Shown here piece after piece: positions 2,380-28,304 of a DNA stretch of 64,000 bases. The number at the start of each line of letters is the position of its first letter. The stretch's first letter is position 1. The DNA lies in the IMG/VR virus record IMGVR_UViG_3300010283_000005, positions 64,001 through 128,000 of that record, one strand, 5' to 3'. Origin of the DNA: a virus. Its lineage: Duplodnaviria; Caudoviricetes. The translations under genes were made by a program, and so were the position numbers. The notes beneath the pieces are model-generated. The model saw only the letters and a program-made list of their open reading frames with translations. It had not been told where the DNA came from and did no database searches.

Positions 2380-5300
2380 ATGTCTGAGCTCGAAAAACTT
2401 GATTTAGTTAAGGATAGCATAAGACAGCTATTAGCTAAGTCTAAGAATAATTTTGAGAAATTAGGGATCACTCAAGAAGAACTAGTATCTCGAATTACTA
2501 ACTTAGTAGCTAATAGTGGAGAAGCTACGCAAGGTAACTCAGAATTGATCGATATCCGAGTCGGATCGGACGGATCAATATATGCAACTGCAGGTGATGC
2601 AGTCCGAGCAGTAGGCTACCGTTTGGACGAATTCAGTCAGGAAGTTAGTGATCTAGTAGGATCCAAGATTCCTGATGGATTCATTGTAGAGGATAATATG
2701 CTGTATCTAGCTAGAAACGGAGAAATCGTCTCTGAAGGAGTAGAGTTGCCTTCAGGTGGTGGCGGAGGTGGCGGAGGATCCTCATCTACCATCAAACTAA
2801 GGAATGAATCTTTGTCTACTTCTCTAGCTATAGCAGAAGGGGAGAATGCTACTTTGAAATTTAATTTCTCATCTATTGATGAGGATGGAAATGAATCAGG
2901 TAGTGGTACGCTTCAGGTGTATGTGAATAACATCCTGAAACTGAATAAAATCATTCCTCAAGGTAGTAATGAACTGGATGTCACTTCGTTACTATCTGCA
3001 GGTAATAATAGTGTACGTATCAAAGTCACTGATTCTTATGGTTTATCTAAGCAGATTTCTTACTCTATCGCAGTTATCGCATTATCAATTACTTCGACTC
3101 TGGATGAATCACAGCAGTATGATTCAGATGTCTCATTCCGATACATCCCAGTAGGTGCTGTTGAGAAAGTCATTCACTTTGAGCTGGATGGAACTGAGAT
3201 TGCTACAACTACTACTAGCTCATCTGGTCGTCAGATGACTCAGGTCATTCCAGTACAGTCACATGGTACGCATTTACTCCGAGTGTGGATCACTGCTGAG
3301 GTCAATGGTATCTCAATTTCAAGTAACATCTTGATTTATGATATAATGTTTGTTGATTCTAGTATTACTACTCCAATCATTGCCAGTCCATTTGCAGTGA
3401 CTGAAGTTGAGGAGGGTACTTTCATCAGCATCCCTTATACAGTATATGATCCTAAGAATCTGATGTGCGAGGTTACTTTGGAGATTATTTCTAGAGGAAC
3501 TACATCCGATAAAGTAGTAAGTACTTCTAAGGTGACTGTCGATCGTACTAAGCAGACTTGGAATATCAGAAAATATCCTGTAGGCAATACTGTATTCAGG
3601 ATCAAGTATGGATCAGTTACTAAGGAGTTTTTAGTCAAGGTTAAGGAATCAGCAATTCAAGTAGACATTGAGACTAATGGCTTGGAATTCTACCTAGATG
3701 CAGAGGGTAAATCCAATCAGGGATCTGATAAGGATAGCTGGGAATCAAATGGCTATGCTACTCAGTTCACTGATGTGAACTTCTTATCTAATGGATGGGA
3801 TACTGACAGTGAAGGCAATACTCGTCTGAAGCTGGCAGGTGATGCTAGAGCTTACAATCCATTTCAGATCTTCAAGACTGATAGTTCTTACACTGGTCGA
3901 ACTATTGAGGTTGACTTATTAGTATCTGATGTACAGGATCAGAATGCAGTAGTAATAGATTGCATGTCTGGAGATATTGGTCTTCAGATCATGGCTAATA
4001 AGGCAGTACTCAAAAGCGAATTGAGTGAAGTATCAGCTCCATTCGGTACTGATGCTCATATCAGATTATCCTTTGTCATTGATAAGAGTGGTGATGGTTC
4101 TGAAAGAATGATTCTTCTCTATATCAATGGTATTGCATCCGGAGCAATGCAGTATCCTGACGGAGATAACTTCAGTCAGGTTCTTAATCCAGTCGGAATT
4201 ACGATGGGATCAAACTTATGTACTACGTATATCTACTCGATTGCAGTATATGATTACAATATTACTAAGTATCAGATTCTTAATAACTTTATTGCAGGTG
4301 CTCAGGATCCAGCAGAATTAGCTGAACGTTACCATCGTAATGATATATTCGATGAATATAGCAATATAGTTATTGATAAACTACCTGAGGATACTCCTTA
4401 TCTGATCGTAGAATCCGATACTTTACCTCAGTACAAGGGAGATAAGAAGAAACAGATATCTGGTTCGTTCCACTATCCTATGGATATCACTAAGAACTTT
4501 ACTTTTGAAGGAGCAGAGATTGATGTCCAAGGTACTTCTTCTGCAGTATATAAAGTTAAGAACTTAAAATTCAAGTTCAAGGGTGGATTTGTGGATGAAG
4601 ATGGTACTAAGTACGAAGTCTACTCAATTGCTTACGGAGGAATTGGTGAGAGTACTTTCACCTTCAAAGCTGACGTAGCATCTTCAGAAGGTACTAACAA
4701 CGTTATGCTTATGGAAATCTACAATCTGCTCAATCCATATCGCACTCCTCCTCAGCAGGAAGATAACCGAATCAGACAAACTATCAGTAGTATGCCAATA
4801 GTTATGTTTCAGTATATGCCTGCTACTAGTACTACTAAGTTCATCGGAAAGTACAACTTCAATAACGATAAGGGTACTCCTAATACTTTCGGATTTGATA
4901 GTACAAAATGGCCATTATGTCAGAGTTGGGAGTTCCGCAATAATACTTCTAATCGTATGCTATTCAAATCTGATGATTTTGATAGCTTAGATGAGTCTGG
5001 TGAACCAGCATGGCTATCTGACTTTGAAGCTAGGTACCCTGATGGTAGTGCTGACTGCACTCAGCTCAAAAGAGTAGTATCTTGGGTATGTAGTACCGAT
5101 ACTAAGCAAGCTACTGGTAAGACTCTAGCTAGTGCTGTAACTTACGACGGAGTCGAATATAATAAAGATACTGCTGAGTACCGTCTTGCTAAGTTTAAGA
5201 ATGAGTTTGAAGATTACTTCATCAAGGATGCAATAATCTTCTACTTTTTATTCACTGAAGTATTCCTCATGGTGGATAGCCGAGCTAAGAATGCTTTCTT

Positions 5301-8300
5301 GACTACCTGGGATGGTATCCATTGGCTGATGCTGGCCTACGATGGCGATACTGCAATCGGTATCAACAACGAAGGTGCTCTAGTATATGGATATAGCTAC
5401 AACTCAACTGATACAATCGGTTCTCAGGATGTCTTTAATGGTAAGGAATCTGTGCTGTGGCTTAACCTGGAAGCTGCATTCGCTGACGATATCAAGGCTA
5501 TGTATAAAGACTTACGTAGTAATTCTGTATTCTCAGCAGAAGGAGTCATCTCTATTTTTGATAAGCATCAGAGTGCTTGGTCAGAAGCGATCTTCAATGA
5601 GGATGGCTGGTTCAAATACATTGAACCATTGATCAGTGATAATAATGCAGCATATCTGGATATGCTACAGGGTTCTAAGAAATCACAGAGAGACTGGTGG
5701 CTTAAGAATCGATTCTTATATGAGGATAGTAAATACAATGCAGGTGGAGCAGTATCTGATGCCATTACTTTCAGATTGTATACTCCTGCTAACTGGAATG
5801 CTATTGAACCTAATTCTGATATCACTATTACTCCTGCAGCTGATCATTATGTAAGTATCAAATATGGTTCTTATCTGGTGCAGAAAAGAGCTACTGCAGG
5901 CGAGGAAGTCCTCATGGAATGTCCAATGGATACTACCAACGATACTGAGACTTACATCTACAGTGCAGGAGCAGTAGCTGATGTAGGTGACTTAGCTCCA
6001 CTGTATATCGGTTATTGTGATATTTCCAAGGCTACTAAGCTGAAACACCTTAAGATTGGTGATGGTACAAAGGGGTACTCCAACTCGAACTTCACGTCCC
6101 TGTCAGTAGGTAATAATCCTCTGCTAGAAGATATTGATATTCAGAATTGTCCTCAGTTCAAACAGACTCTGGATTTATCTGGATGTGATAACATCAAGTC
6201 AGTCAAGGCTAAAGGATCTGGAGCTACTTCAGTAAAACTTCCGGATGGTGGATATCTAGAAACTCTAGAGCTTCCTAACTCAGTATCTAACTTGACTATC
6301 AAGAAGCATACTAAGTTCAAGACTTTGAGCATGGATAGTTATGCATCTCTGACTACCTTATGGGTTGAAGATACTCCTAATATTCCAGTTGAGGATATCG
6401 TGAGCTCTGCAACTCATCTGAATCGAGTCCGATTGACTAATATCAATTGGTCAACTGATAAGATTGATACTATCCTGAAGCTAGCTAAGTGCGCTGGACT
6501 TGACGACTACGGTAATAATACTGATACAGCTTGGGTGACTGGTACTGTGACTATCGATACCTTGTATAGTCATGATCTAGATACAATCAAATCAGCATTC
6601 CCGTACCTGACTGTCAAATATAATCATCTAATTCATGTAGTTACATTCCTGAATGAAGATGGCTCATTCTTATCTAAGCAGGAAGTTGAGGATAATAACA
6701 ATGCAGATACTCCTCAGGATCCTACTAAGGCATATGATAAGCATTATTACTATGTCTTCAAGGGATGGGATACGACTTATACTAAGGTCAAGAAAGACTT
6801 AACGATCAAGGCTACGTATGACTATATCACTCAGACTTATCATCTGAAGTTATACAAGAATAAATCAGATTCTAATCCAGCAGCTGAAGTTGACGTACTC
6901 TATGAGAATACGTTCACTTACGATAAGTCACTATTCACTACTGACGATTCAGTATTAGCTGGTTGGACTAATGATGATGGTACCCTATTTGAAGATAACT
7001 TCATGTTCGATTCGATGGCAGTGATCAACTCTGCAGGTAATCCAGTAGATATCAAACTGTATGCTAAACGATATACTATTGAACTTCCTAGTCAGTCCAG
7101 CAACTTATCTGACTTGAACTATGGTCAGATTAAGGCTGTTAGTAATATGATTCAAGGTCAGACTATGGAAGGAGCTTCTATCAAGTACTTCTCTGATACT
7201 CGAGAATACATCATTACTAACTCCAAGAATGGTACTACTGTATCAGTGGCAGTAGGCGATGTCAAGGATATCGTTCTTAGAGATGGAGAACCTATCACAC
7301 TTGCAGTTCTTGATTTCAAGCATGATTATCAGGATTTAGAGGAATCTAAGGGTACTGGTATGACAATTGGATTCAAGAACTTGATGGCTAAGACTCAGCA
7401 GATGAATAAGGGTACTAAAACTAAGTACAATTATACACTAGGTGGAGTCAAGGCTGATGCTACTACGTTCTCGCATGAGGTAAGTACAGAAGAAGCAGTC
7501 TCTGGATACTGTGAGCTAAAGGCTGCTAGTCAGTCTTACATCTCCTTGATTAAGAAAGAATCTGCATCTGGAGAAGTTACTACCTGGGCATTTGACCGTA
7601 GAGGATTCTACTGTATGCAGGATCTATCAGGTGATTCTAAGCCTAGTACTAATACTTGGTACACTGCTGACGATGATCCTAATACTTATAAATTTGGTAA
7701 GATGCTTCTACAGGATAACTCTGCTATCGATTGGATGAGTACTCAGCTGCAGAAGTATGCTATTCAAGGTAGTACTACTAAGTTTAGTAACTTCGGAGGT
7801 ATGATTATTGATACTACTGCTCATGATAATTTGTATAATGCAGATTCAGCAGTGAGATTCTACAGTGACTACACTAACGATTGGAACAACTTCACTGAAT
7901 TAACTCAGAATGCTATAATCAAGATCCCAGTAGTAGCAGGAGATACGGTTACGGTATATGCTTATACTAGTGCTCGTAATACTAATGGTTATCGTGATAC
8001 TGATCTGAGAGACTACTTGATCAACGAGCTGTACTATCTGTTACCACTAGGAGTCAGAGAATTGATTATTCCAGTAGTCAAGAAGTTCTCCATTGGTAAT
8101 AGATGCCCTATCATTGATTACGTTATTGATCCGATCTGGCTACTAAGTTCTCGAGAAGTCAATGGCTTCAATTCGGATCCGTATGATAAAGAAGGTAAGG
8201 TTTATCCTATCTTCAGTAATAATGAGTCACGTAAGAAGTACTTAGCTAATGGTACAGGTGATGTGTACTGGTGGTGGTTGCGTGGTCCTGGTGTTAGTGG

Positions 8301-8397
8301 TTCGGGCAGTTTCTGTAGTGTGTATACGGATGGTTATCCGAGCGGCAACGACTGGGCTTACCACTCTGGTGGTGTCTCCCCTAGCTTCTGTTGGTAA
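2380..8397 (+). CDS. Giant multidomain tail/adhesin protein, DGR1 target (Ig-like, LamG-like, CotH-like, LRR-like, C-terminal DUF6273/CLec-like variable domain)
   Basis: 2005 aa. The C-terminal WWWLRGP...GVSPSFC is encoded by VR1, which matches TR1. Internal KADVASSE, GKYNFNNDK, DSRAKN and YDGDTAIG motifs; LRR-like LEDIDIQNC/LDLSGCDNI. Confidence 0.85.
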   Translation: MSELEKLDLVKDSIRQLLAKSKNNFEKLGITQEELVSRITNLVANSGEATQGNSELIDIRVGSDGSIYATAGDAVRAVGYRLDEFSQEVSDLVGSKIPDGFIVEDNMLYLARNGEIVSEGVELPSGGGGGGGGSSSTIKLRNESLSTSLAIAEGENATLKFNFSSIDEDGNESGSGTLQVYVNNILKLNKIIPQGSNELDVTSLLSAGNNSVRIKVTDSYGLSKQISYSIAVIALSITSTLDESQQYDSDVSFRYIPVGAVEKVIHFELDGTEIATTTTSSSGRQMTQVIPVQSHGTHLLRVWITAEVNGISISSNILIYDIMFVDSSITTPIIASPFAVTEVEEGTFISIPYTVYDPKNLMCEVTLEIISRGTTSDKVVSTSKVTVDRTKQTWNIRKYPVGNTVFRIKYGSVTKEFLVKVKESAIQVDIETNGLEFYLDAEGKSNQGSDKDSWESNGYATQFTDVNFLSNGWDTDSEGNTRLKLAGDARAYNPFQIFKTDSSYTGRTIEVDLLVSDVQDQNAVVIDCMSGDIGLQIMANKAVLKSELSEVSAPFGTDAHIRLSFVIDKSGDGSERMILLYINGIASGAMQYPDGDNFSQVLNPVGITMGSNLCTTYIYSIAVYDYNITKYQILNNFIAGAQDPAELAERYHRNDIFDEYSNIVIDKLPEDTPYLIVESDTLPQYKGDKKKQISGSFHYPMDITKNFTFEGAEIDVQGTSSAVYKVKNLKFKFKGGFVDEDGTKYEVYSIAYGGIGESTFTFKADVASSEGTNNVMLMEIYNLLNPYRTPPQQEDNRIRQTISSMPIVMFQYMPATSTTKFIGKYNFNNDKGTPNTFGFDSTKWPLCQSWEFRNNTSNRMLFKSDDFDSLDESGEPAWLSDFEARYPDGSADCTQLKRVVSWVCSTDTKQATGKTLASAVTYDGVEYNKDTAEYRLAKFKNEFEDYFIKDAIIFYFLFTEVFLMVDSRAKNAFLTTWDGIHWLMLAYDGDTAIGINNEGALVYGYSYNSTDTIGSQDVFNGKESVLWLNLEAAFADDIKAMYKDLRSNSVFSAEGVISIFDKHQSAWSEAIFNEDGWFKYIEPLISDNNAAYLDMLQGSKKSQRDWWLKNRFLYEDSKYNAGGAVSDAITFRLYTPANWNAIEPNSDITITPAADHYVSIKYGSYLVQKRATAGEEVLMECPMDTTNDTETYIYSAGAVADVGDLAPLYIGYCDISKATKLKHLKIGDGTKGYSNSNFTSLSVGNNPLLEDIDIQNCPQFKQTLDLSGCDNIKSVKAKGSGATSVKLPDGGYLETLELPNSVSNLTIKKHTKFKTLSMDSYASLTTLWVEDTPNIPVEDIVSSATHLNRVRLTNINWSTDKIDTILKLAKCAGLDDYGNNTDTAWVTGTVTIDTLYSHDLDTIKSAFPYLTVKYNHLIHVVTFLNEDGSFLSKQEVEDNNNADTPQDPTKAYDKHYYYVFKGWDTTYTKVKKDLTIKATYDYITQTYHLKLYKNKSDSNPAAEVDVLYENTFTYDKSLFTTDDSVLAGWTNDDGTLFEDNFMFDSMAVINSAGNPVDIKLYAKRYTIELPSQSSNLSDLNYGQIKAVSNMIQGQTMEGASIKYFSDTREYIITNSKNGTTVSVAVGDVKDIVLRDGEPITLAVLDFKHDYQDLEESKGTGMTIGFKNLMAKTQQMNKGTKTKYNYTLGGVKADATTFSHEVSTEEAVSGYCELKAASQSYISLIKKESASGEVTTWAFDRRGFYCMQDLSGDSKPSTNTWYTADDDPNTYKFGKMLLQDNSAIDWMSTQLQKYAIQGSTTKFSNFGGMIIDTTAHDNLYNADSAVRFYSDYTNDWNNFTELTQNAIIKIPVVAGDTVTVYAYTSARNTNGYRDTDLRDYLINELYYLLPLGVRELIIPVVKKFSIGNRCPIIDYVIDPIWLLSSREVNGFNSDPYDKEGKVYPIFSNNESRKKYLANGTGDVYWWWLRGPGVSGSGSFCSVYTDGYPSGNDWAYHSGGVSPSFCW
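8278..8385 (+). repeat. DGR1 variable repeat VR1
   Basis: 108-nt ungapped match to 8937-9044; 20 mismatches by manual alignment, all opposite TR adenines (15 G, 3 T, 2 C). Confidence 0.95.
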
Positions 8398-8422: not shown

Positions 8423-8908
8423 ATGTCGGTGTATGAAAGCGAACGTAGGAAATCTACTAGAGATTTTATCAAATATGCTAGAGCAATGCAGCTAAAGTCA
8501 TTAAGTTATACTTCTCAATTTCCTGAGAAGTATACTGATATGGCTAAATACATAAACAATCTAGCATTTGAAGTGCATGATCAAGCTAAGAGAGCAGAAG
8601 ATTATCCTGATAATTTTGTACAAGATTTAGTACAAATTAGAATCTACCTACTGAGTTCGCGAGCTGCTCTCACTAGTCTGATATCTCAAGTTGATTTAGC
8701 TTATGAATTATTTCCACTTAGTGGATATTCATATACTAATAGGAGGAATAACGATGAAGAATCTGATCAGAAGATCGAAGTCGCTAGTCTTAAGGATTTA
8801 AATAAAAGTACTAGAATTCTTAGAGACTGGTCAGCTTCTCTATTTGATGCATTAACTGCATTAGATGAAGCTATCAAGCATATAGATGGCAGGATATCCT
8901 GCCCTTGA
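8423..8908 (+). CDS. avd: Accessory variability determinant (Avd-like four-helix bundle)
   Basis: 161-aa helical protein between VR and TR; MSV.ES.R..S start, FP.KY and late W motif typical of Avd. Confidence 0.75.
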   Translation: MSVYESERRKSTRDFIKYARAMQLKSLSYTSQFPEKYTDMAKYINNLAFEVHDQAKRAEDYPDNFVQDLVQIRIYLLSSRAALTSLISQVDLAYELFPLSGYSYTNRRNNDEESDQKIEVASLKDLNKSTRILRDWSASLFDALTALDEAIKHIDGRISCP

Positions 8909-8936
8909 ATATGTAGGTTGCATTCTGTATTACCCA

Positions 8937-9044
8937 TTGCGTGGTCCTAATGTTAGTAATTCGAACAATTTCTGTAATGTGAATACAGATGGTAATCCGA
9001 ACAACAACAACTGGGCTAACAACTCTAATGGTGTCTCCCCTAGA
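8937..9044 (+). repeat. DGR1 template repeat TR1
   Basis: AAY-rich copy of VR1 between avd and RT (34 adenines). Confidence 0.95.
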
Positions 9045-9274
9045 TCCTGCAATTCAGCAGATTTAAATCCTAGCTAGGCATGCTATTATCTGCCTTATTA
9101 CAGAAGGAGAATGCAACCTTCCACTTAAAGTGGTAAATAAGTACCTTAGATATGATTAGGAGGACGCTTCTTGCATGGTTAGCTGCTTAAGCATTTCAGC
9201 TAATTTCATTCCTAGTATCATTTAGCAGTAAGTCAGAATGCTTAGTATCAAGTACTGTACGAGGTAACCCTAGA

Positions 9275-10441
9275 ATGAATAGTGTAGAACGACATGAAGC
9301 TCGTTATCAACGTAGACGAGCTAGAAGACTTAAACGCAAGTCTGAGTATGATTCAGGTTGCGTGACTACTGAAGATGTATTTACTTATGATAATTTATAT
9401 GCTTCGTACAAGAAGTGCTTGAGAGGAGTGAATTGGAAATATAGCGTGCAATCCTATCAGGCTGATGCTCCTATCCTAGTATATCAATCATACCGTGAAA
9501 TAGCTGAAGATAGACTAGTAGTCAGACCTGGAAGTAGATTCATTCTATATGAGCGTGGTAAATTAAGGAAGATTCGAGGAGTCAATATCAAGGAGCGAGT
9601 TATTCAGAAATGTTTAAGTGATCACTGCTTGAAACGAGTACTAGGCAGATCATTGATCTATGATAATCATGCTAGTAGAGCAGGTAAGGGTACTCGTAAG
9701 GCTAGAGAACGACTACAATGTCATCTTGAACGTCAGATCAGAAGGCATGGTCCTAATAGCTATGCTCTAGTATTCGACTTTTCAGGATTCTTCGATAGTT
9801 TCGATCACAATCTAGTACGTCAGTATCTTATGAATACTGTAGGTGATCCTAGAATTGTGGACCTAACTATGAAATTTGTTAACTCATCAGATATAGGTAG
9901 AGGACTCGAGTTAGGTAGTGAAGTCAATCAGGATTTAGCTATCAGTGTATCTAGTATTATTGATCACTTTGTGAAAGAAGTACTGCAGATACATAATTAT
10001 GGTCGATATATGGATGATGGATACATGCTTCACGAAAGTAAAGAGTATCTAGAGCAGTGTTTAGTAAGATTCAAAGAATTCGTAGAATCACTAGGATTCA
10101 AGCTAAATACTAAGAAGACTAGGATAATCTCTTTGACCAAGGATGGATTCCAATTCTTAAAGACTAAGTATCGAGTCACTCAGACTGGTAAGATTATAAA
10201 GAGATGCGTTCATTCTAGCGTAGTTAGAATGAGACTTAAGCTCAAGAAACTAAGGATCAAACTTACTGAGGGTAAATTGAAATTCCTTAGTATCTACTCA
10301 GCATTTCAGTCCTGGAAATCTAGTATATCACACTGCAACTGCTACGTCACAGTGAAATCAATGACTAAATTATTCCTCAGGCTTTATCATAATGAATGCA
10401 CTGAAGCAGGATTTATCAATAAATTAAGGAGGTGCTTATAA
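9275..10441 (+). CDS. DGR reverse transcriptase RT1
   Basis: ERGKLRKI, ERVIQK, GKGT, DFSGFFDS, GLELGSEVNQ, YGRYMDD and FLK motifs; 388 aa. Confidence 0.95.
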   Translation: MNSVERHEARYQRRRARRLKRKSEYDSGCVTTEDVFTYDNLYASYKKCLRGVNWKYSVQSYQADAPILVYQSYREIAEDRLVVRPGSRFILYERGKLRKIRGVNIKERVIQKCLSDHCLKRVLGRSLIYDNHASRAGKGTRKARERLQCHLERQIRRHGPNSYALVFDFSGFFDSFDHNLVRQYLMNTVGDPRIVDLTMKFVNSSDIGRGLELGSEVNQDLAISVSSIIDHFVKEVLQIHNYGRYMDDGYMLHESKEYLEQCLVRFKEFVESLGFKLNTKKTRIISLTKDGFQFLKTKYRVTQTGKIIKRCVHSSVVRMRLKLKKLRIKLTEGKLKFLSIYSAFQSWKSSISHCNCYVTVKSMTKLFLRLYHNECTEAGFINKLRRCL

Positions 10442-11181
10442 TGTACTATAAAGTAGTAAGCGATGATAAGATTATCGATGTCCTAGAATCAGCTAGCTTC
10501 GTCAGATATCAGAGCAAGAATGATCTAATGCTAGTATGCGATAAGGATTCTGCAGAAGGAGTACTATCTTCAGATGGTAATTCGATTTATCGTATCGTAG
10601 AAGAGTGCTCAACTAAGCTTCAAGAATATGATCTAGTAGAATTGTATGAGATCGATCAGAAGGAATTCGATATCTTAGCTGATCTGATTAAATCCAATGA
10701 TACTCCTGTAGATGATCCTTCTGAGGATTCTCAGGACATTGAAGCTCTAACCCTAGATTATGCTAAGACTAAAGCTATCTCGAAGTTGAATACTATTTGT
10801 CATGAGAAGATTGTTGAGGGATTCACTATGAGTCTCGATAATGGAGAGAAATATCATTTTGATATGGCTATTGAAGATCAGCTCAATATCAACTCACTAG
10901 CTGCATTCGTGGCTAAGGGTATGACTATCATTCCATACAATCTGCCTAATGATTGCGTATTCCTGAGCGTGGATGAAGTCAATCGACTGATTGTTGCAGC
11001 ATCTGCTCATAAGATCAGTCAGCTATCCTACTATAAATCTCTCAAGAGATATATCATGAGTATGACTAGTCTTACTAAGGTAGGTAAGGTAGAATATGGC
11101 ATGGAAATTCCTGAGAAGTATTGGTCTTCAGTATATAAGGAGATTCAGGATGGCAATTTCGATTTAAGTAGCCTGATGTAA
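10441..11181 (+). CDS. DUF4376-like tail-associated/fibre-assembly protein
   Basis: CHEKIVEGF...FDMAIEDQLNI...YN..YG pattern; paralogous to 23574-24326; ATG overlaps the RT1 stop (TAATG). Confidence 0.55.
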   Translation: MYYKVVSDDKIIDVLESASFVRYQSKNDLMLVCDKDSAEGVLSSDGNSIYRIVEECSTKLQEYDLVELYEIDQKEFDILADLIKSNDTPVDDPSEDSQDIEALTLDYAKTKAISKLNTICHEKIVEGFTMSLDNGEKYHFDMAIEDQLNINSLAAFVAKGMTIIPYNLPNDCVFLSVDEVNRLIVAASAHKISQLSYYKSLKRYIMSMTSLTKVGKVEYGMEIPEKYWSSVYKEIQDGNFDLSSLM

Positions 11182-18693: not shown

Positions 18694-20682
18694 ATGGGTG
18701 ACAATAGAGTAACTTCAACTATGGTCGAACTGAATATGAGTAGGGGTGACCAAGCTACTCTTAGAGACTTTCTAGATACTAGTAAGGTCCTACCTATAGG
18801 TGCATTCTGCAAGACTTCTGTAGCTCAAGCTATTACAGATGCTATCAACTACTTAACTGCTAAGCAAGATGGTGGTGTCTATGTTCCAGCTGATAAATCC
18901 AATAAGGCTACTCAGATTGTATCTTCAATTGACAAATCAGGTAAGTTGAAGATCAATTATATCACTTCTAATTACCGTTATCCTATCAATAAAGAAGCTC
19001 GTCCATTCACTGGAGATGCTTGGCAGATCGGTGACTTAGTATATAATACTGACACTGATGAGAATAAATGCCTAGGATGGGTATGTACAGAAGCAGGTAT
19101 CCCTGGATCGTGGGGAGTAATCGGATTTATTAGGAGCTGGGCTACTGAGCTTGAAGAAGTGACTGCATTGCCTGATCCAGGTCCAATGCAGATCAATCGT
19201 CAGGTAGTATGTGCTGGTAGAGCTTACATCTGCAAGCTAGTAGATGGTGAGTACAACTGGTACTGGATGGACTATGCTTATGGTAATAGCAGTCAGCATC
19301 CTACTACTGACCTACGAGTAGGACTCCCTTACTACAATATACAGACAGGCTTACCTGAGTGGTGGAATGGTTCAGAATGGGTAGCAGTAGCTAAGGCTAA
19401 CCATACTCATGAAGACCTAGGTGCATCAGATACTCCTAAATATCTGACTAAGTCAGTAGAGAATACTAATGATAAGCTGATCTATCTACCTAATTCTCGA
19501 GAAGGATTCCTGTCAGTCAATTTAATCGGTAAACCTGGCATGGTAGCTAGTGAACTGAGTATCTCTTCACTAGAGAATCAGGCTAAGTTTGATGAATTAG
19601 TCAAACTCGATGATACTAATTCTAGTTATCAAGTTGATGGTGATACTCTGACCTTAGTTAAGAGTACTGACTCAACTGCTCAGATTCAAGTAGCTAAGAT
19701 TCCTATCCGAGTCAAAGCAGGAGCTCAGTATCGATGCTACTATGATCTCGAGACTACTAATGAAGCTAAAATCATCGTAGGTATGAAGAAGACTGGAATC
19801 GTAGCTTCATTCAAACCTGATGGTAGTGTCGAGTGCAACTTTGATGGTACTGAAGATACTGATGCTGAGCTAGTCTTCATGTTTGATCTTAATACTAAGA
19901 TCAATAGCATTGCTTACATAAAGAATTTCTTCTTAGTAGACATCGCTAATAAATCAGTTGACTTCGTACTTGAAGATTACATCCCAGGTCAAGAACTCAG
20001 ATGCGTTAGGAATTATGCAGCTGATGAGCTTATTGATAATGTCTTCTATAAGAGAGTAGTCGACCTTAAGCTGTATACTTATGGTGATGAGGTAGAGTTC
20101 GCAAACCAAGGTACATTTGCTAATGATGGATATTTAGTTATCCTTCAGAATCATAAGCATTCTTACTTAGGTAGATCAATGTATGTGCCTAAGGATGATC
20201 AAACTGCATCTGCAATTAAGATCAGCGGATTCAGTACTGAGGCTTATGATAAGGTACGTTTAGGTAGTACTGATGGACTCAAGATCGGAATCAGTTCTGA
20301 AGGTATGGTAGCTTACAACATTCCTAATAGTTTAGTAGGTAATTATTCTGTAACCTATTACTTGAAGTACTTAGCTGAGAAGATCAATACAGCTTCTATA
20401 ATTCCATTAGCAGAACCAGTAGTTAGTGAGTTAGTAATGTATCCAGCTCCTATTAGATGCCATACTCGTGGTGTCTTATTACTGAGTAAGTTTAATGTGA
20501 ACTTAGATATCAAGTATCCTGCTAATGCTGCTGCAGTGACTGAGATGACTGCTGATATCTTGCAGAAGGTTGCTAATCAGAGAATCAAGTACAATGAAGC
20601 TCCTCTAAGCTGGTCTGATAAGATCACTTGGGGTACAGCTGCAAAAAATAATAAGAATTGGAGAGGTGAGAAGAATGCCTAA
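18694..20682 (+). CDS. Tail fibre/adsorption protein
   Basis: WQIGDLVYN...GWVCTEAGIPGSW and PEWWNGSEW motifs of fibre proteins; tail context. Confidence 0.6.
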   Translation: MGDNRVTSTMVELNMSRGDQATLRDFLDTSKVLPIGAFCKTSVAQAITDAINYLTAKQDGGVYVPADKSNKATQIVSSIDKSGKLKINYITSNYRYPINKEARPFTGDAWQIGDLVYNTDTDENKCLGWVCTEAGIPGSWGVIGFIRSWATELEEVTALPDPGPMQINRQVVCAGRAYICKLVDGEYNWYWMDYAYGNSSQHPTTDLRVGLPYYNIQTGLPEWWNGSEWVAVAKANHTHEDLGASDTPKYLTKSVENTNDKLIYLPNSREGFLSVNLIGKPGMVASELSISSLENQAKFDELVKLDDTNSSYQVDGDTLTLVKSTDSTAQIQVAKIPIRVKAGAQYRCYYDLETTNEAKIIVGMKKTGIVASFKPDGSVECNFDGTEDTDAELVFMFDLNTKINSIAYIKNFFLVDIANKSVDFVLEDYIPGQELRCVRNYAADELIDNVFYKRVVDLKLYTYGDEVEFANQGTFANDGYLVILQNHKHSYLGRSMYVPKDDQTASAIKISGFSTEAYDKVRLGSTDGLKIGISSEGMVAYNIPNSLVGNYSVTYYLKYLAEKINTASIIPLAEPVVSELVMYPAPIRCHTRGVLLLSKFNVNLDIKYPANAAAVTEMTADILQKVANQRIKYNEAPLSWSDKITWGTAAKNNKNWRGEKNA

Positions 20683-22048
20683 AGTTAATTTTGACTACAT
20701 TGGTAGTAATGAACAATTAAGTCCTGCCAAGGTCAACGCTAACTTCCAGACACTAGAGAATATGATTAACTCTGGTGAGCTAAGTGGCGGTGGCGGAGGT
20801 GGTACTGTCACGGGTTCTGAGTATGGAGTTGAATGGGATATCACTAATAAAAGATTCACTAGACTGAATAATGCATTAGGATTGTCTGCTACGCTCGGAT
20901 CCAATGGCATTGTCAGCTCAGATTTTGATAATGTCTACCCTTGGTCGGAGATGAGACGATGCAATCTAAGTGATGACGGAGTAGTCACTGCCTACTACGG
21001 AGACTCGAATTTCTCAGAGACTGGATCTAATGGTCAGGTCATGGTCGAGATTCCTAAGTTCTATTATAAGACAATTCCAGTAGCCTACACAGTGAGCAAT
21101 GGAGATGTAGTTCCTACTAAAGTACAGTTCTACATATCTGATGCTAAACTGGATGGATACTCTCTTCATCCAGCATTTATCCGAGATAATGTCATCCTTG
21201 ATTATATCTACCTTGGAGCGTATGAAGCATCTGTCTACGATGTATCAGCTGCTAGGTATGTAGCTGACTTCGGATTCGATGGTGCTAATGATATCCTCGG
21301 ATCAGTCAAAGGTCTCAAGCCAGTAAGTGGAAAGACTTCTACTTTCACTAGAGCAATTGCTCGTAATATGGCTCGTAGACGTGGTGCTGGATGGGAACAG
21401 CAGGATTTCTTATCCACTAGTGCAGTTCAGCTCATGATGTTGATAGAATTCGCATCATTCGATAGTCAGACTGATATTGGTGCAGGTGTCTCTAATAAGA
21501 CTGATGATGGATCCAGTAACATGGCTGAAAATACTGGATACACCTCTGAATTAGGTAATAAATCTGGTAATGCTGCTACTTCTAGTAGCTCTTATAGAGC
21601 AGTTACTTATCGTGGTATTGAGAACCTATGGGGCAATATTTGGGTATGGATCGATGGCATCAATATCCAGAACAGTAGCCTTGGGTATCCTTGGATTGCT
21701 GATCATGGATTCGCTGATGATATCATGACTGAACCATATCATCGGATCAATGGTAAGATTCCTGCATCTGATGGATACATCGATAAGCTTATTTATGATG
21801 TATCCAATGACTTTGCAATGCTACCTTCTTCAGCTGGTGGTGCATCAAATACTCCTGTCAACAGCTATATGTGGCAGAGAGTAGCATCTACTTCAATGAT
21901 GGTGGCTGGGCTTGGTGGTAGCTGGCTTTATGGCTCTGCTTGTGGTGGCTGGGGCTGGGGTCTGGCTTATGCCTCTTCTTATTCTGGTCGGGATATCGGG
22001 GCTCGGCTTGGATTCTACAAGAAGACGACTCATGCTCAAGCTGCGTAA
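20675..22048 (+). CDS. DGR2 target: receptor-binding protein with CLec/FGE-like C-terminal domain
   Basis: GQVMVEIPKFY, YLGAYE, YRGIENLWGNIW, GGSW...IGARL; the 3' end is VR2. Confidence 0.85.
   Translation: MPKVNFDYIGSNEQLSPAKVNANFQTLENMINSGELSGGGGGGTVTGSEYGVEWDITNKRFTRLNNALGLSATLGSNGIVSSDFDNVYPWSEMRRCNLSDDGVVTAYYGDSNFSETGSNGQVMVEIPKFYYKTIPVAYTVSNGDVVPTKVQFYISDAKLDGYSLHPAFIRDNVILDYIYLGAYEASVYDVSAARYVADFGFDGANDILGSVKGLKPVSGKTSTFTRAIARNMARRRGAGWEQQDFLSTSAVQLMMLIEFASFDSQTDIGAGVSNKTDDGSSNMAENTGYTSELGNKSGNAATSSSSYRAVTYRGIENLWGNIWVWIDGINIQNSSLGYPWIADHGFADDIMTEPYHRINGKIPASDGYIDKLIYDVSNDFAMLPSSAGGASNTPVNSYMWQRVASTSMMVAGLGGSWLYGSACGGWGWGLAYASSYSGRDIGARLGFYKKTTHAQAA
21902..22016 (+). repeat. DGR2 variable repeat VR2
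   Basis: 115-nt ungapped match to 22225-22339; 25 mismatches at TR adenines (18 G, 4 T, 3 C) plus one T>G. Confidence 0.95.
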
Positions 22049-22052
22049 TCGG

Positions 22053-22071
22053 TGCTAATTAAAAATTAGCA
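22053..22071 (+). promoter_or_regulatory. Hairpin/cruciform 3' of VR2 (candidate DGR target-recognition element)
   Basis: TGCTAATT-AAA-AATTAGCA, 8-bp stem just after the target stop; position analogous to the BPP-1 post-IMH hairpin. Confidence 0.6.
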
Positions 22072-22189
22072 TCTTTCCTATAAATTGTAGGTTATATCCT
22101 ATGAGTGACCGATGGTACTAACCATAATTGATCGCAGGTGATTTGATCACTTGTTCCATGAACCTAGAACTGCTCAGTCGCATCTATGT

Positions 22190-22220
22190 AATTTATGGGA
22201 GGGAATCCCTCCCATAAATT
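22190..22220 (+). repeat. 31-nt perfect inverted repeat immediately 5' of TR2
   Basis: AATTTATGGGAGGGA-A-TCCCTCCCATAAATT. Confidence 0.85.
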
Positions 22221-22224
22221 TCAA

Positions 22225-22339
22225 GTGGCTAAACTTGGTGGTAACTGGAATAATGGCTCTAATTGTGGTAGCTGGTACTGGAATCTGAATAATACCTCTT
22301 CTAATTCTAATCGGAATATCGGAGCTCAGCTTAAATTCT
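22225..22339 (+). repeat. DGR2 template repeat TR2
   Basis: AAY-rich copy of VR2 upstream of RT2 (32 adenines). Confidence 0.95.
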
Positions 22340-22525
22340 TACTATAATATTGGATATGGTGTAGGATATGACCTGACCTCTCGGTCGAACATAAAAATAG
22401 CAGAACTTTAATCTGTGTTAGTAGGTCCTTCATTTTATGATTTATATTATACATTGATGTGGCTCGGACGCTCAGAACTGCGTAAGAATCCAATAAATAA
22501 ATACAAAGGAGGATAACCTCGAGGT

Positions 22526-23623
22526 ATGAAACGCATCGGGAATCTATACGATGAAGTATGTAGTATCGAGAACCTGCGTGAAGCACATCAGCGTGCACGT
22601 AAAGGTAAAGGATGGTACGCTGAGGTAATTGCTGTCGATAATGACTTGGATAATAAACTTGAAGAATTGTCCAAGATGATGAAAGAACACCGCTACCGTA
22701 CTAGTGAGTATACGATCTTTAAGAAGAAGGAAGGTAAGAAAGTCAGAGAAATCTGTAAACTTCCTTATTATCCTGATCGAATCGCTCAATGGGCAGTAAT
22801 GCTCGTAATTGAGAAGTATCTCACTAAGAATCTGATTATTGATACATACTCAGCAATCAAGGGTAGAGGAATTCATAAAGGTCTCAAGAAGATCAAAGAA
22901 TGCATACTTAATGATGCTGAAGGGACTAAGTACTGCTTAAAGATGGATGTTCATCATTACTACGCAAGTATTAATCATGATATCCTCAAAGCTACTTTCG
23001 CTAGATTATTTAAAGATCCAGACTTATTATGGCTGATCGGAGAGATTATCGATTCTACTCCGGGAGATACTGGTATTCCAATCGGTAATTATTTATCGCA
23101 ATGGAGTGGCAATATCTACTTGAGTAGGCTAGATCACTGGCTGAAAGAAGTTAAGCATGTCAAGTATTACTTCCGATACATGGATGACATGATCATCCTA
23201 TGTGATAGTAAAGAAACCTTGCATCAACTGAGAAAAGATATCTCTGAGTACTTAGAGACTAATCTTAAACTGAAACTTAAATCTAACTGGCAAGTCTTCC
23301 CTACTTTAGTAAGAGGAATTGACTTCTTAGGATACAGATTCTTCCGTGATTATGTATTACTGAGACAATCTATCGCTGATAAGTTCAAATCTACTATGCT
23401 TAAGATTAAGCATAAGTTAGTTACTGGAAAGTCCATCACTTACCATGACTTCTGCTCAGCTAATAGCTATAAGGGATGGCTAAAGCACTGTGATTCATGG
23501 CGAATAAGACTTAAGTATATAGTACCTATTCAACCTAGTCTAGATGACTATTATAGAAAGGAGATCAAGAATCATGGAACCAAAACGAATCGATTATCAG
23601 GTCCAGTCTACTGTCAAGCCTGA
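22526..23623 (+). CDS. DGR reverse transcriptase RT2
   Basis: MKRIGNLY, PDRIAQWA, GRGIH, KMDVHHYY, GIPIGNYLSQ, YFRYMDD and IDFLGY motifs. Confidence 0.95.
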   Translation: MKRIGNLYDEVCSIENLREAHQRARKGKGWYAEVIAVDNDLDNKLEELSKMMKEHRYRTSEYTIFKKKEGKKVREICKLPYYPDRIAQWAVMLVIEKYLTKNLIIDTYSAIKGRGIHKGLKKIKECILNDAEGTKYCLKMDVHHYYASINHDILKATFARLFKDPDLLWLIGEIIDSTPGDTGIPIGNYLSQWSGNIYLSRLDHWLKEVKHVKYYFRYMDDMIILCDSKETLHQLRKDISEYLETNLKLKLKSNWQVFPTLVRGIDFLGYRFFRDYVLLRQSIADKFKSTMLKIKHKLVTGKSITYHDFCSANSYKGWLKHCDSWRIRLKYIVPIQPSLDDYYRKEIKNHGTKTNRLSGPVYCQA

Positions 23624-24326
23624 TGCTATTGCTATGACTGACTTCGAAGTCTTTATCAGAACTAACATCTCTGCTAAAGAAGTAGAAGATGAGATGTCCT
23701 CTAGTAGCAAGAAGAAATCTACTCATACGATGTATATCTATACTGAAATTGTATATGATAAGAACGAGTACTTCACTAAGCTAGCAGAATCTACTGATCT
23801 ACCAGTAGTGGTCGATCGAGCTGCTATGTCAGATGAAGACCTAATTGCTTACCTCAAGAATTACTTCAATCAGAAGTGCGAAGATGCACTAGCAGTTGGT
23901 ATTGAAGTTGATGTACCTGACTTAGGTAGAAAAAACTTCAGCTGCAAGCTAGAAGATCAGGTCAATATCGAAGCTATAGCTAAGGGCATCACTGCTGATA
24001 CTACTGAGGTTTATTATCACTCCAATGGTGATAAATGCCGTCTGTATGATGTAGCTACCTTTGCAGAGATCACTGGTAAGGTGTTCGTATGCAAGTACCA
24101 GCAGACTGCATACTGTAATCTACTCAAATCCTATGTAGAGGGTGAAGCTACTGCGGATGAGCGTAGAACTATCGAGTATGGAGATGTACCTTCTGAGGAG
24201 TTCAGCAATGAGCTATCTAAGATCGTACTGCAAGGAGTTACTTCTACTGCAGCTAGCTTCCTTACTCCAAATGAGACTTTCAACAAAGTCATCGAGTCAC
24301 TAGTTTCTCAGTTAACTAGCAATTAA
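23574..24326 (+). CDS. DUF4376-like tail-associated protein
   Basis: CEDALAVGI...FSCKLEDQVNI...YH..G..CRLY...YCNLLK..IEYG; AAGGAG RBS lies inside the RT2 3' end. Confidence 0.55.
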   Translation: MEPKRIDYQVQSTVKPDAIAMTDFEVFIRTNISAKEVEDEMSSSSKKKSTHTMYIYTEIVYDKNEYFTKLAESTDLPVVVDRAAMSDEDLIAYLKNYFNQKCEDALAVGIEVDVPDLGRKNFSCKLEDQVNIEAIAKGITADTTEVYYHSNGDKCRLYDVATFAEITGKVFVCKYQQTAYCNLLKSYVEGEATADERRTIEYGDVPSEEFSNELSKIVLQGVTSTAASFLTPNETFNKVIESLVSQLTSN

Positions 24327-24345: not shown

Positions 24346-24813
24346 ATGCGAAATTCTTCTAAATTGTTGAAAGTACTTCTGATCTGGTTCATCCTAGGCA
24401 TGATGTACTTCACTTTAGAAGGAATTTGGAGGATACCTAAAGGCGGATACGCTAATATCGCTATGTTACCAGTAGGTGGATTGTGTGGATTATGTGTAGG
24501 TACCATCAACCAGATTCCTAAGTTCTATAATATGAAGATCATATATCAATCTATTATAGGAGCAGTAATCACAACTATCATAGAATTCATTTCAGGATTA
24601 TTCCTGAACTGCTACTTACAATTAGGAATATGGGATTACTCAAACTTGCCATTTAATATATTAGGTCAAGTATGCTTACCATTCAGTCTGATTTGGTTTG
24701 TCATCATGCCTTTATGCATATGGTTAGAAGATAAGATTCGTTACGTATTCTGGAACGAAGGTAGTAATTACTCACTGAAGTCTATCTATGTAGAATTCAT
24801 TACTCTACATTAA
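24346..24813 (+). CDS. Membrane protein (putative ABC-transporter-permease-like/CmpB family)
   Basis: About four TM segments; EFISG...WDYSNLPFNILGQVCL motif. Confidence 0.7.
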   Translation: MRNSSKLLKVLLIWFILGMMYFTLEGIWRIPKGGYANIAMLPVGGLCGLCVGTINQIPKFYNMKIIYQSIIGAVITTIIEFISGLFLNCYLQLGIWDYSNLPFNILGQVCLPFSLIWFVIMPLCIWLEDKIRYVFWNEGSNYSLKSIYVEFITLH

Positions 24814-24843
24814 CTAATCATATGTATAGAAGGAGGTCAGCCA

Positions 24844-25392
24844 ATGGACAGTCTAATGAAATTGGTAGGTGATTATGAAATCGATGGAATAAAGGTAGCT
24901 ACTTTTATTTTACTGATCTCAGCAATCGTCTATCTGTACAAATTATACAAGAAAGCTAAGCAATTAATAATTGCTAAGTATGAGGAAGAAACTGAGAAAG
25001 ATAAGAAGATCAATGAAACTTATAATAGAATGGAGCAATATCAGGAGGATCAGAAGAAGTTACTAGGTACAATAGAGAAAATGCAGAGAATGCAGGAGAA
25101 ACTCTCTGAGCAGCTTCATCAGATCGATGAGAAGAATAAGAAATATGAGCTAGCCAATTCTCGAGATAGATTGCTTCAGAGTTATCGTTATTATACTAAT
25201 AGGGAGAAAAACCCTATGCAATCTTGGACTGAACTGGAGAAAGAAGCATTCTTCGAAGTATTTGGAAATTACGAGGATGCTGGTGGAGATGGATTCATGC
25301 ATACTACAGTTCAGCCTGAGATGAATAAGCTCACTGTCATTCCAATGCATGAAACTACTGAGATTGCTGAGCTCATGGCTAGCCGACGCTAA
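24844..25392 (+). CDS. Membrane-anchored coiled-coil protein (holin-like/lysis accessory)
   Basis: N-terminal TM, coiled coil, Y..AGGDG motif; directly upstream of the endolysin. Confidence 0.5.
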   Translation: MDSLMKLVGDYEIDGIKVATFILLISAIVYLYKLYKKAKQLIIAKYEEETEKDKKINETYNRMEQYQEDQKKLLGTIEKMQRMQEKLSEQLHQIDEKNKKYELANSRDRLLQSYRYYTNREKNPMQSWTELEKEAFFEVFGNYEDAGGDGFMHTTVQPEMNKLTVIPMHETTEIAELMASRR

Positions 25393-25442
25393 GGTATTAA
25401 CCTAATTGGTTGATATAAATATTCAGAAAGGGAGGTCATAGT

Positions 25443-26879
25443 ATGACTAATCAGGAATTTATCGAGCAAGTCGCTAAGTATGTCAGAAAGTATGCTAAAT
25501 CTTATGGAATTCTAGTACACAGTCCTATCATTGCTCAGGCTATCCTTGAGAGTGGATGGGGTAAAAGTTCCCTAGCTGCAAAGTACCATAACTACTTTGG
25601 ACTCAAGTGTGGTAGCAAGTGGACTGGTAAGTCAGTCAACATGACTACTCAAGAGGAGTACTCAGTAGGTACACTCACTACTATCAAGGATAATTTCCGA
25701 GTTTATGATAGTATGGAGGATGGAATCAAGGGCTACTTTGAATTCATTCAGTTAGCTAGATATGCTAACCTGAAAGGTATCACTGATCCTAAGACTTACT
25801 TAGAGACTATCAAGGCAGATGGTTATGCTACTAGTAGCAAGTATGTAGACAATAACTACAACTTGATCACTCAGTATAACCTTACGAAATATGATAAGAA
25901 GGAGGATAATGCGTCTATGAAAACTAGAAGTGCAGTAGTTGCTCTAGCTCAGTCGTGGCTAGGCAAGAATGAAGCTGATGGAAGCTATAAATCCATCATC
26001 GACATCTACAATTCCTATAAGGGTACATTCCCTCGTGGTACTAAGATGTCTTACAGCTGGGCATGGTGCGCATGTACTTGGTCAGCTCTAGCAATCAAGC
26101 TAGGATACACTGATATCATGCCTATTGAAATCAGCTGCTATTATATCATCCAGAGTGCTAAGGCTATGGGTATCTGGGTCGAAGATGATGCCTATGTTCC
26201 TAGTCCAGGTGATGCAGTACTGTATGATTGGGATGACAATGGTATTGGTGACAATACTGGTAACCCTGATCATATCGGTACTGTGGAGACAGTCAATGCA
26301 TCCGCTGGTACTTTCACTGTCATCGAGGGTAATTATTCCAATGCAGTAAAACGTAGAACTATGGGCATCAATGGTAAATTCATCAGAGGATTTATCTGCC
26401 CTAAGTATGATGCTACGGGAGAAGTTCCTACTCCTAGCTACACTAAGAAATCTACTGAGGAGATCGCTAAGGAAGTCATTGCAGGTAGATGGGGTACTGG
26501 TGATACTCGTAAGACTGCTCTGACTAACGCAGGCTATGATTATGCTACAATTCAGGATAAGGTCAATGAACTCCTGAAATCTGGTGGCACCTCTACTCCT
26601 GCTAAGAAATCAGTAGATACCATTGCTGATGAAGTTCTTCAGGGTATCTGGGGTAATGGTGATACTCGTAAGAAGAAACTTGAAGCTGCTGGATACAATT
26701 ATTCTGAAGTTCAGGCTGCAGTCAATCGCAAAGTCAAAGGATCCACTAAATCAGTTACTGCAGTAGCTAAAGAAGTCATTGCAGGTAAATGGGGTAATGG
26801 ATCTGAGCGTAAGAAGAAACTCGAAGCAGCAGGATATAATTACTCCGAGGTTCAGGCTATGGTGAATAAGCTTCTCTAA
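25443..26879 (+). CDS. Endolysin: GH73 glucosaminidase + CHAP + 3 CW_7-like repeats
   Basis: AQAILESGWG, NYFGLK, GYATS; WCA, DHIG and IEGN; three copies of A.EVI.G.WG.G..RK..L..AGY.Y..VQ..VN. Confidence 0.9.
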   Translation: MTNQEFIEQVAKYVRKYAKSYGILVHSPIIAQAILESGWGKSSLAAKYHNYFGLKCGSKWTGKSVNMTTQEEYSVGTLTTIKDNFRVYDSMEDGIKGYFEFIQLARYANLKGITDPKTYLETIKADGYATSSKYVDNNYNLITQYNLTKYDKKEDNASMKTRSAVVALAQSWLGKNEADGSYKSIIDIYNSYKGTFPRGTKMSYSWAWCACTWSALAIKLGYTDIMPIEISCYYIIQSAKAMGIWVEDDAYVPSPGDAVLYDWDDNGIGDNTGNPDHIGTVETVNASAGTFTVIEGNYSNAVKRRTMGINGKFIRGFICPKYDATGEVPTPSYTKKSTEEIAKEVIAGRWGTGDTRKTALTNAGYDYATIQDKVNELLKSGGTSTPAKKSVDTIADEVLQGIWGNGDTRKKKLEAAGYNYSEVQAAVNRKVKGSTKSVTAVAKEVIAGKWGNGSERKKKLEAAGYNYSEVQAMVNKLL

Positions 26880-27999: not shown

Positions 28000-28017
28000 A
28001 AATTTAGTAAAAACCTT

Positions 28018-28046
28018 TTGACATTTGACGTAAAATGTGTTATAAT
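28018..28046 (+). promoter_or_regulatory. Host sigma-A/70 early promoter 1
   Basis: TTGACA-17 nt-TATAAT with extended TG and an A/T-rich UP region. Confidence 0.9.
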
Positions 28047-28070
28047 TAGTATAGGGGGTAACTAAATATA

Positions 28071-28099
28071 GAGTAATTAGAAGGTGATGAACGTTTATA
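28071..28099 (+). promoter_or_regulatory. Phage promoter motif GAGY-N17-CGTTTATA
   Basis: GAGT-17 nt-CGTTTATA between the two sigma-A promoters. Confidence 0.75.
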
Positions 28100-28189
28100 G
28101 GTAAGGAAAGGAAGGTTTCGGCAAATTGCCCAAATTTCACACCCTAGATTTGGTCAAAACGCTGAAATTTAAAAATTTGCTAAAAACGT

Positions 28190-28218
28190 TTGCAATTTGA
28201 CGTAAAATGTGTTATAAT
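28190..28218 (+). promoter_or_regulatory. Host sigma-A/70 early promoter 2
   Basis: TTGCAA-17 nt-TATAAT with extended TG. Confidence 0.85.
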
Positions 28219-28304
28219 TAGTATAGGGGGTAACTAAATATAGCAAGATGAGGTTACCAACTAAGCTTAAGAAGAAATTCACTTAAATAAGGAGTTCCAT
28301 TAAA

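Follow-up and report, generated by a model that had tools for sequence, protein, structure and literature searches.

A probably self-contained DGR cassette without avd, and with a private structured insertion in its leader, in a phage that also carries an Avd-bearing DGR

We analysed a 64,000-nt stretch of DNA (the window), which comprises bases 64001-128000 of a 142,407-bp IMG/VR virus that has direct terminal repeats and is estimated to be complete. The window contains two DGRs, one in the order avd-TR-RT (DGR1) and one in the order target-TR-RT (DGR2). DGR1 is made up of a target gene (2380-8397) with VR1 at 8278-8390, a plus-strand 161-aa ORF at 8423-8908 that we refer to as Avd1, TR1 at 8937-9049, a plus-strand spacer RNA at 9074-9288 and RT1 at 9275-10441. 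The features of DGR2 described below all lie on the plus strand. Its target gene (20666-22048) encodes a 460-aa tail protein that matches phrog_5302 'tail protein' (E 2.9e-103) and carries VR2 (21902-22016) at its C-terminal end, 32 nt before the stop codon. TR2 (22225-22339) follows and then RT2 (22526-23623; 365 aa; RVT_1, E 2e-17; phrog_1423, E 4e-125), and the ORF of a 250-aa protein (23574-24326) overlaps the end of RT2. Beyond DGR2 we observed a probable lysis module (24346-26879) consisting of a membrane protein (PF06541), an ORF that is spanin-like and an ORF of 478 aa that holds three repeats of ~120 nt (26448-26867). Since this module comes after DGR2, the cassette sits at the tail/lysis boundary. 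Further on, 28000-28243 contains a 72-nt direct repeat, its copies 89% identical and 172 nt apart, with a promoter-like TTGACA...TATAAT sequence inside it. Neither blastn against phages nor exact-pattern scans of viral and metagenome contigs matched a close relative of this phage.

VR2 and TR2 align without gaps over 115 nt and differ at 26 positions, 25 of which are TR adenines (18 read G, 4 read T and 3 read C in VR2) while the last is a T to G change. An earlier reading of the locus from its sequence alone had counted 25 altered positions among the 32 adenines of TR2, and the alignment gave the same count. DGR2 has the features by which a DGR is recognised, namely TR/VR differences that fall almost only at adenines, a coding gene that ends in the VR region and an adjacent RT. 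The motifs IGNYLSQ and YMDD, read directly from the DNA, are present in RT2, and we take them to be marks of a DGR-type RT. Every RT2 relative that we checked adjoins a TR/VR pair. The identity between RT2 and RT1 is only 24%, which indicates that DGR2 is not a recent copy of DGR1.

The sequence-only reading had put about 175 nt, with no Avd-sized ORF, between the target stop and TR2. By our measurement 176 nt lie between the stop codon (22048) and the start of TR2 (22225), and no ORF of at least 60 aa was found there or between TR2 and RT2. The only ORFs of at least 50 aa that touch 22049-22525 are 22195-22347 on the plus strand (50 aa, the TR frame) and 22326-22598 on the minus strand (90 aa), and a Pfam search with the latter gave no match.

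From IMG/VR we retrieved 80 loci whose RT resembles RT2 (37-58% identity), added the nearest isolate, Psychrobacillus phage Perkons (RT 46.6% identity), and located the TR/VR pairs of these relatives by an adenine-tolerant diagonal scan. We found that all RT2 relatives with enough upstream flank (about 70 loci and Perkons) have the order target-TR-RT. The distance from the end of VR to the start of TR is 51-166 nt, with one case of 284 nt, and an Avd-sized ORF was found in this gap in none of them. As a control, relatives of RT1 were treated by the same procedure; their gap is 458-862 nt in 19 of 19 cases and holds an ORF of 125-174 aa in 17 of the 19. The gap sizes therefore differ consistently between RT1 and RT2 relatives, and the two RT lineages have stable, different architectures.

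Among 29 genomes that encode an RT2-type RT, including 16 virus records at least 90% complete and the complete genome of the Perkons isolate, none (0/29) gave a match to the Avd1-family profile or to PF05635, although the PF05635 result is weak evidence since that model misses Avd1 too. Each of the 29 genomes has exactly one RT, so the idea that relatives with a DGR2-type cassette always carry DGR1 or an avd as well did not hold. One group of 18 related contigs within the RT2 clade has 18 different VRs. For the 46 pairs of this group with identical TR cores, the VRs differ at 9-23 positions per pair, and 775 of the 789 differences (98%) fall at TR adenines. Avd-less relatives with a single DGR still diversify their VRs at adenines, and the RT2 lineage therefore needs no second, Avd-bearing DGR. 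A recent deletion of avd from DGR2 was also considered and rejected: no relative has an avd slot, and the leader upstream of TR2 is without similarity to Avd1, to the relatives' loci or to the rest of the genome. The lack of avd in DGR2 is a property of the clade and not a recent loss. The literature agrees with two such stable architectures: architecture A, which has no accessory gene, accounts for 29% of the 372 DGRs of Wu et al. 2018, where one RT lineage is avd-less throughout and has no avd elsewhere in its genomes (PMC5758913). Assigned by cassette architecture, DGR2, a TR-RT core without an accessory gene, belongs to architecture A; it has neither the avd nor the post-TR stem-loop of an Avd-containing DGR (architecture B, BPP-1 type).

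The flanks of TR were examined by an ungapped helix scan of upstream versus downstream sequence, tested against shuffles, and the scan was repeated anchored on a conserved hairpin with one cassette per non-redundant relative. In the window a 5' arm at 22088-22103 pairs with a 3' arm at 22360-22375 so as to enclose TR2. This duplex was equalled by 0 of 200 shuffles in the hairpin-anchored scan and is present in the minimum-energy fold, and the whole region 22075-22530 folds with z = -4.5. An AU-rich linker of 20 nt (22340-22359), which holds no stem-loop, separates TR2 from the 3' arm. Next comes a small hairpin, GACC-TCTC-GGTC (22375-22386), with an A-run (22387-22399), together spanning 22375-22399, and further downstream a conserved single-stranded motif, GTGTTAGTAG (22415-22424), that is present in several lineages of the clade. 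We found that the enclosing helix, 9-21 bp long, is significant against shuffles (p <= 0.05) in 53 of 55 non-redundant cassettes. The clade contains 25 distinct 5'-arm sequences, and the outer end of the helix often reads AGG.../...CCT. Clade-wide, a 4-bp hairpin starts 0-1 nt past the 3' arm and is followed by the A-run. A hairpin of like position and shape was found in 55 of 62 non-redundant relatives, and its stems covary, with six Watson-Crick versions (GACC/GGTC in the window, TGCC/GGCA in most relatives).

In Bordetella phage the cPRT Stop comprises a duplex formed by the 3' end of avd with the spacer, a short stem-loop and adenosines that dock into the duplex; the element terminates cDNA synthesis, which ends just before the duplex, and priming requires it (10.1101/2023.10.23.563531). 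DGR2 has the same structural parts in its duplex (22088-22103/22360-22375), adjacent hairpin and A-run. Judged by predicted pairing, these correspond to the cPRT Stop of Bordetella phage, with the hairpin and A-run as the second half of the element. Since duplex, hairpin and A-run are kept across the clade and resemble the cPRT Stop, the TR-enclosing helix described from the sequence alone is real, conserved and known in kind.

The position of the 5' arm differs from that in DGR1. It had been placed ~120 nt from TR2, as against ~10 nt in DGR1, and we measured 121 nt here and 10 nt in DGR1, where the 5' arm is at 8915-8926. In relatives the distance is 0-73 nt (0-9 nt in most lineages). The intervening sequence is a structured insertion (22104-22224) composed of an irregular hairpin (22105-22181) and a perfect palindrome hairpin (22187-22223). 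The perfect 31-nt palindrome reported to abut TR2 proved exact at 22190-22220, with its central base unpaired, and lies four bases from TR2; the longer hairpin arms around it run from 22187 to 22204 and from 22206 to 22223. Folded alone, the leader 22104-22224 reaches -41.6 kcal/mol (z = -4.9), and 0 of 200 shuffles were equally stable. The 121-nt insertion is special to this phage among the relatives compared. We rejected the palindrome as a repeated element, since no second copy was found in the window, the 142-kb genome or IMG/VR. We also rejected it as an intrinsic terminator or promoter, since a consensus scan returned only a hairpin at 22051-22073 and no plus-strand promoter. That hairpin has a 10-pair stem and a T-rich tail and starts 3 nt past the target stop, and relatives also have a hairpin between the target stop and the 5' arm. 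From its sequence and position it could be a terminator to be read through by the TR RNA, or a VR-flanking DNA hairpin for target recognition.

In the Bordetella phage RNA an 11-bp stem-loop directly after TR is gripped by five of five Avd protomers (10.1101/2023.10.23.563531). The 20 nt from TR2 to the 3' arm are too few for an Avd-binding stem-loop, and the sequence around this linker (22333-22362) folds with -3.6 kcal/mol, no better than shuffles. Across the RT2 clade TR and the 3' arm mostly stand 18-67 nt apart; one case has 4 nt and another 15 nt. We also observed that locus L007 (3803-3828) and the related loci L008-L025, which are Avd-less and have a single DGR, contain an 11-bp GAAA-capped hairpin ~10 nt after TR, and that this hairpin has the position and shape of the Avd-binding stem-loop. 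Since the L007 group has a hairpin there, the absence of such an element does not hold for the whole clade.

At the far end of the spacer, a strand at 22482-22493 is complementary to the TR2 3' end (22335-22342) and also, along 9 nt, to the VR2 3' end (22008-22016). The TR2 pairing joins 22335-22342 to 22482-22489, and the inverted repeats I7 and I9 of the window are these pairings of the spacer tail with the TR2 and VR2 3' ends. Of 42 non-redundant cassettes, 19 show pairing between the terminal bases of TR and a strand that lies 2-36 nt ahead of the RT start. The pairing strands represent at least 7 different sequences or lineages (loci include L036, L040-L048, L055 and L061). In 14 cassettes the TR side of the duplex begins exactly one base past the last adenine that differs from VR, and in each of these 14 the spacer base after the pairing strand complements the base that VR has at the position of that adenine. 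Counted over seven independent lineages, the adjacent position is VR-complementary in 10 of 10, where chance would give one in three each time. By its complementarity this duplex looks like a template:primer duplex at the end of the spacer that matches the VR version of the boundary. The template:primer duplex may thus have been relocated, or else the spacer-tail strand may serve as an anti-IMH strand. A template:primer duplex that matches VR would fit the hybrid RNA-cDNA molecule known as the homing intermediate (PMC5703328).

The spacers of the two cassettes were compared with Rfam. The DGR1 spacer matches RT-2 (96 bits, E 5e-23). The DGR2 spacer aligns to RT-17 (RF03020) over the hairpin at the start of the model, the A-run and the tail; it scores 20.5 bits (E 0.1-0.36) as against a gathering score of 40.4 bits, which five close relatives (L004, L005, L036, L042 and L048) exceed with 41-57 bits. 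The RT motifs were described by Weinberg et al. 2017, where only RT-10 is tied to a DGR (PMC5737381). As a separate observation, the strong RT-2 match ties that motif to an avd-TR-RT DGR, and an avd slot is present in every RT1 relative.

The protein encoded at 8423-8908 in DGR1 gave no match when its sequence was searched against Pfam, NCBIfam and PDB. An exhaustive search found about 18-19 small remote homologues, two of which match PF05635. The AlphaFold model of the protein is a four-helix bundle (pLDDT 79) whose best PDB fold matches are 2GSC and the Avd chains of 8UB7 and 8UB8, which are DGR ribonucleoprotein entries; the Foldseek E-values are weak, with probabilities of 0.96-1.0. On the remote homologues and the predicted fold we accept this protein as an atypical Avd. 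Avds are usually basic. Avd1 has an unusually low pI of 5.7, and its 161 aa include a long fourth helix. The Avd1-family profile has a single match in the genome, at 8423-8908, which makes Avd1 its only Avd-like gene.

The protein encoded downstream of RT2 begins with a domain of ~85-90 aa (its first ~85 residues) that belongs to phrog_18126, and its C-terminal part is homologous to the DUF4376-containing protein encoded after RT1 (E 5e-8). The genes after RT1 (10432-11181) and RT2 (23574-24326) are paralogous over about 160 aa of this DUF4376-like sequence, which matches a 'tail fiber protein' PHROG. No DUF4376-like gene lies within 3 kb in the RT1-clade relatives, so the pair looks like a feature of the two fibre modules of this phage. 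Of 57 relatives with an RT identity of at least 46% and enough flank, 53 encode the phrog_18126 domain; each such locus has a single copy, which invariably comes right after the RT on its 3' side and in many cases overlaps the RT stop. In a reciprocal search of bacterial genomes seeded with this domain, an RT2-type RT lay directly upstream in 14 of 14 loci, which belong to Lachnospiraceae, Oscillospiraceae and relatives. With a mean pI of 4.2 the family is strongly acidic. Perkons, L042, L043, L055 and the branch at 37-42% RT identity do not have the domain, and all of these are without avd too. A fold search with the domain against the PDB and tblastn against GenBank phages gave no match. The possibility that the downstream protein is a hidden Avd was rejected, since its model is a beta-sheet with a helix (pLDDT 72) and not a helical bundle, and it had no fold match.

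It is probable that DGR2, taken as a whole, is a target-TR-RT cassette both complete and self-contained, and that its RT lineage works without Avd. Several points count against this. Avds are so divergent that Avd1 escapes Pfam and an unrecognised helper in the relatives is possible; the Avd-less L007 group has a hairpin where the Avd-binding stem-loop would be; and the spacer in the window falls well short of the RT-17 gathering score. The sequence-only reading had offered instead that RT2 borrows Avd1 in trans. That Avd1 is the sole Avd-like gene of the genome, that both DGRs lie within one late-gene region and that the 5' arms of the two enclosing helices are identical over their first 8 nt would all suit such borrowing, and in Bordetella phage avd, TR and brt do act in trans from a plasmid (PMC5758913). 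We nevertheless regard it as unlikely, given how dissimilar RT1 and RT2 are, the different families of their spacer RNAs (RT-2 and RT-17-type) and the missing stem-loop after TR2; borrowing is also unneeded, for the 29 single-RT relatives diversify their VRs with no detectable Avd and no second DGR. The same reading had suggested that extra RNA structure substitutes for Avd, with the leader at 22104-22224 replacing it as an RNA chaperone or scaffold. The leader is strongly structured and is placed where avd is in DGR1, but the entire clade lacks avd and this phage alone has the insertion, its Avd-less relatives managing with 0-73 nt and mostly with 0-9 nt; the insertion is therefore not what replaces Avd, and we give this explanation very little credence. 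Slightly less probable than borrowing in trans is that DGR2 is a relic, a dead element whose VR2/TR2 differences are historical and whose RNA was perhaps disrupted by the insertion. No relative has its 5' arm so far from TR, and the spacer scores poorly against RT-17, as would suit a relic, but a single non-adenine mismatch in 115 nt, an intact RT2 ORF with its catalytic motifs and the integrity of all conserved RNA elements speak against decay.

A role for the downstream gene is compatible with an Avd-independent DGR2, and the two can coexist. Through its acidic N-terminal domain, the protein after RT2 might be the accessory factor of the lineage, performing part of the Avd role or acting in cDNA integration; we consider this possible but doubtful. 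The earlier suggestion that RT2 uses this gene fared well in one respect, the tight linkage to the RT2 clade in both directions of search (53/57 and 14/14, with one copy per locus directly 3' of the RT), and poorly in another, in that the family is acidic, unlike the nucleic-acid-binding Avd, and is modelled with a fold that is not Avd-like and has no PDB match. Of the three suggestions made from the sequence, it is nevertheless the sole one to gain support. The domain is also missing from Perkons and the other relatives named above, which have no avd either. This phage has the domain fused to DUF4376-like sequence that is shared with the protein after RT1 and matches a tail-fibre PHROG, and so it may be a partner of the tail fibre that accompanies the target gene. 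The downstream protein is either an accessory factor of the DGR lineage or a fibre partner that moves with the target gene.

For the Avd-independent DGR2 that we favour, we propose the following course of events. The non-coding flanks of TR2 form the conserved DGR RNA scaffold, followed by RT-17-type spacer motifs, and RT2 would bind this RNA alone, without Avd. The enclosing duplex would position the template, and reverse transcription would start beside the duplex of the TR2 3' end with the spacer tail at 22482-22489. The 121-nt insertion may be a lineage-specific expansion that is tolerated inside the loop closed by the enclosing duplex. Because the Stop duplex has moved 121 nt away, the perfect hairpin (14-16 bp) abutting TR2 may be the physical end-point of the cDNA; alternatively, the cDNA could run on into the non-homologous leader sequence. 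Joined together, these parts would make DGR2 an Avd-independent DGR RNP in which a template:primer duplex at the far spacer tail matches VR (IMH), the Avd-binding stem-loop is dispensed with, an acidic ~90-aa protein serves as accessory factor, the hairpin at TR2 is the cDNA end-point, and two orthogonal machineries serve two tail proteins. We put this combined picture forward as speculative, somewhat less probable than the accessory-factor role of the downstream protein alone.

To our knowledge, mechanistic and structural work on DGRs has all been done on the Avd-dependent element of Bordetella phage, and the published survey of DGR RNA elements that we know of covered Avd-bearing DGRs only. 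Since one cassette of each type stands side by side in this phage, it is a natural test of the independence of the two machineries. The comparative data give predictions for the bench, namely the RNA strands that pair, the start and stop of the cDNA and a candidate small protein. Compact Avd-free DGRs would also offer simpler parts for DGR-based targeted-mutagenesis tools.

Compared with known systems, DGR2 resembles the A1 cassettes of Wu et al. (PMC5758913) in its target-TR-RT order, in its adenine-specific VR/TR differences and in a tail-protein target that carries the VR at its C-terminal end, and neither has an accessory gene from target to TR. As in the avd-less lineage of that study, the absence of avd in the RT2 clade tracks RT phylogeny. 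Unlike the A1 cassettes, DGR2 shares its phage with an avd-TR-RT cassette, and most relatives in the RT2 clade have a small conserved gene after the RT. DGR1 resembles DGR2 in its tail-protein target, in an enclosing helix with a 5' arm that starts with the same 8 nt, in the hairpin and A-run after the 3' arm and in the DUF4376-like gene downstream. DGR1 differs in having an Avd, in the closeness of its 5' arm to TR1 and in the stretch of 51-58 nt from TR1 to the 3' arm, which contains conserved hairpins that belong to the RT-2 model. The RT-17 RNA, like the DGR2 spacer, lies between TR and the RT gene on the same strand; the variable middle of the DGR2 spacer is 74 nt long as against 32 nt, and the Rfam model omits the partner strand upstream of TR that is present in DGR2. 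The BPP-1 DGR RNA (Handa et al., 10.1101/2023.10.23.563531) likewise has a duplex between the sequence upstream of TR and the spacer, then a short hairpin and adenosines, and more conserved spacer elements ahead of the RT gene. In contrast to BPP-1, DGR2 lacks an Avd gene, and no stem-loop follows TR ahead of its 3' arm. The partner of its TR 3' end is at the far end of the spacer instead of 2 nt upstream of the 3' arm. A distance of 121 nt separates its 5' arm from TR, whereas the BPP-1 cDNA ends just before the duplex. The Avd-less kind of DGR and the RNA clamp around TR are thus already known, and what is private to this phage is the structured insertion.
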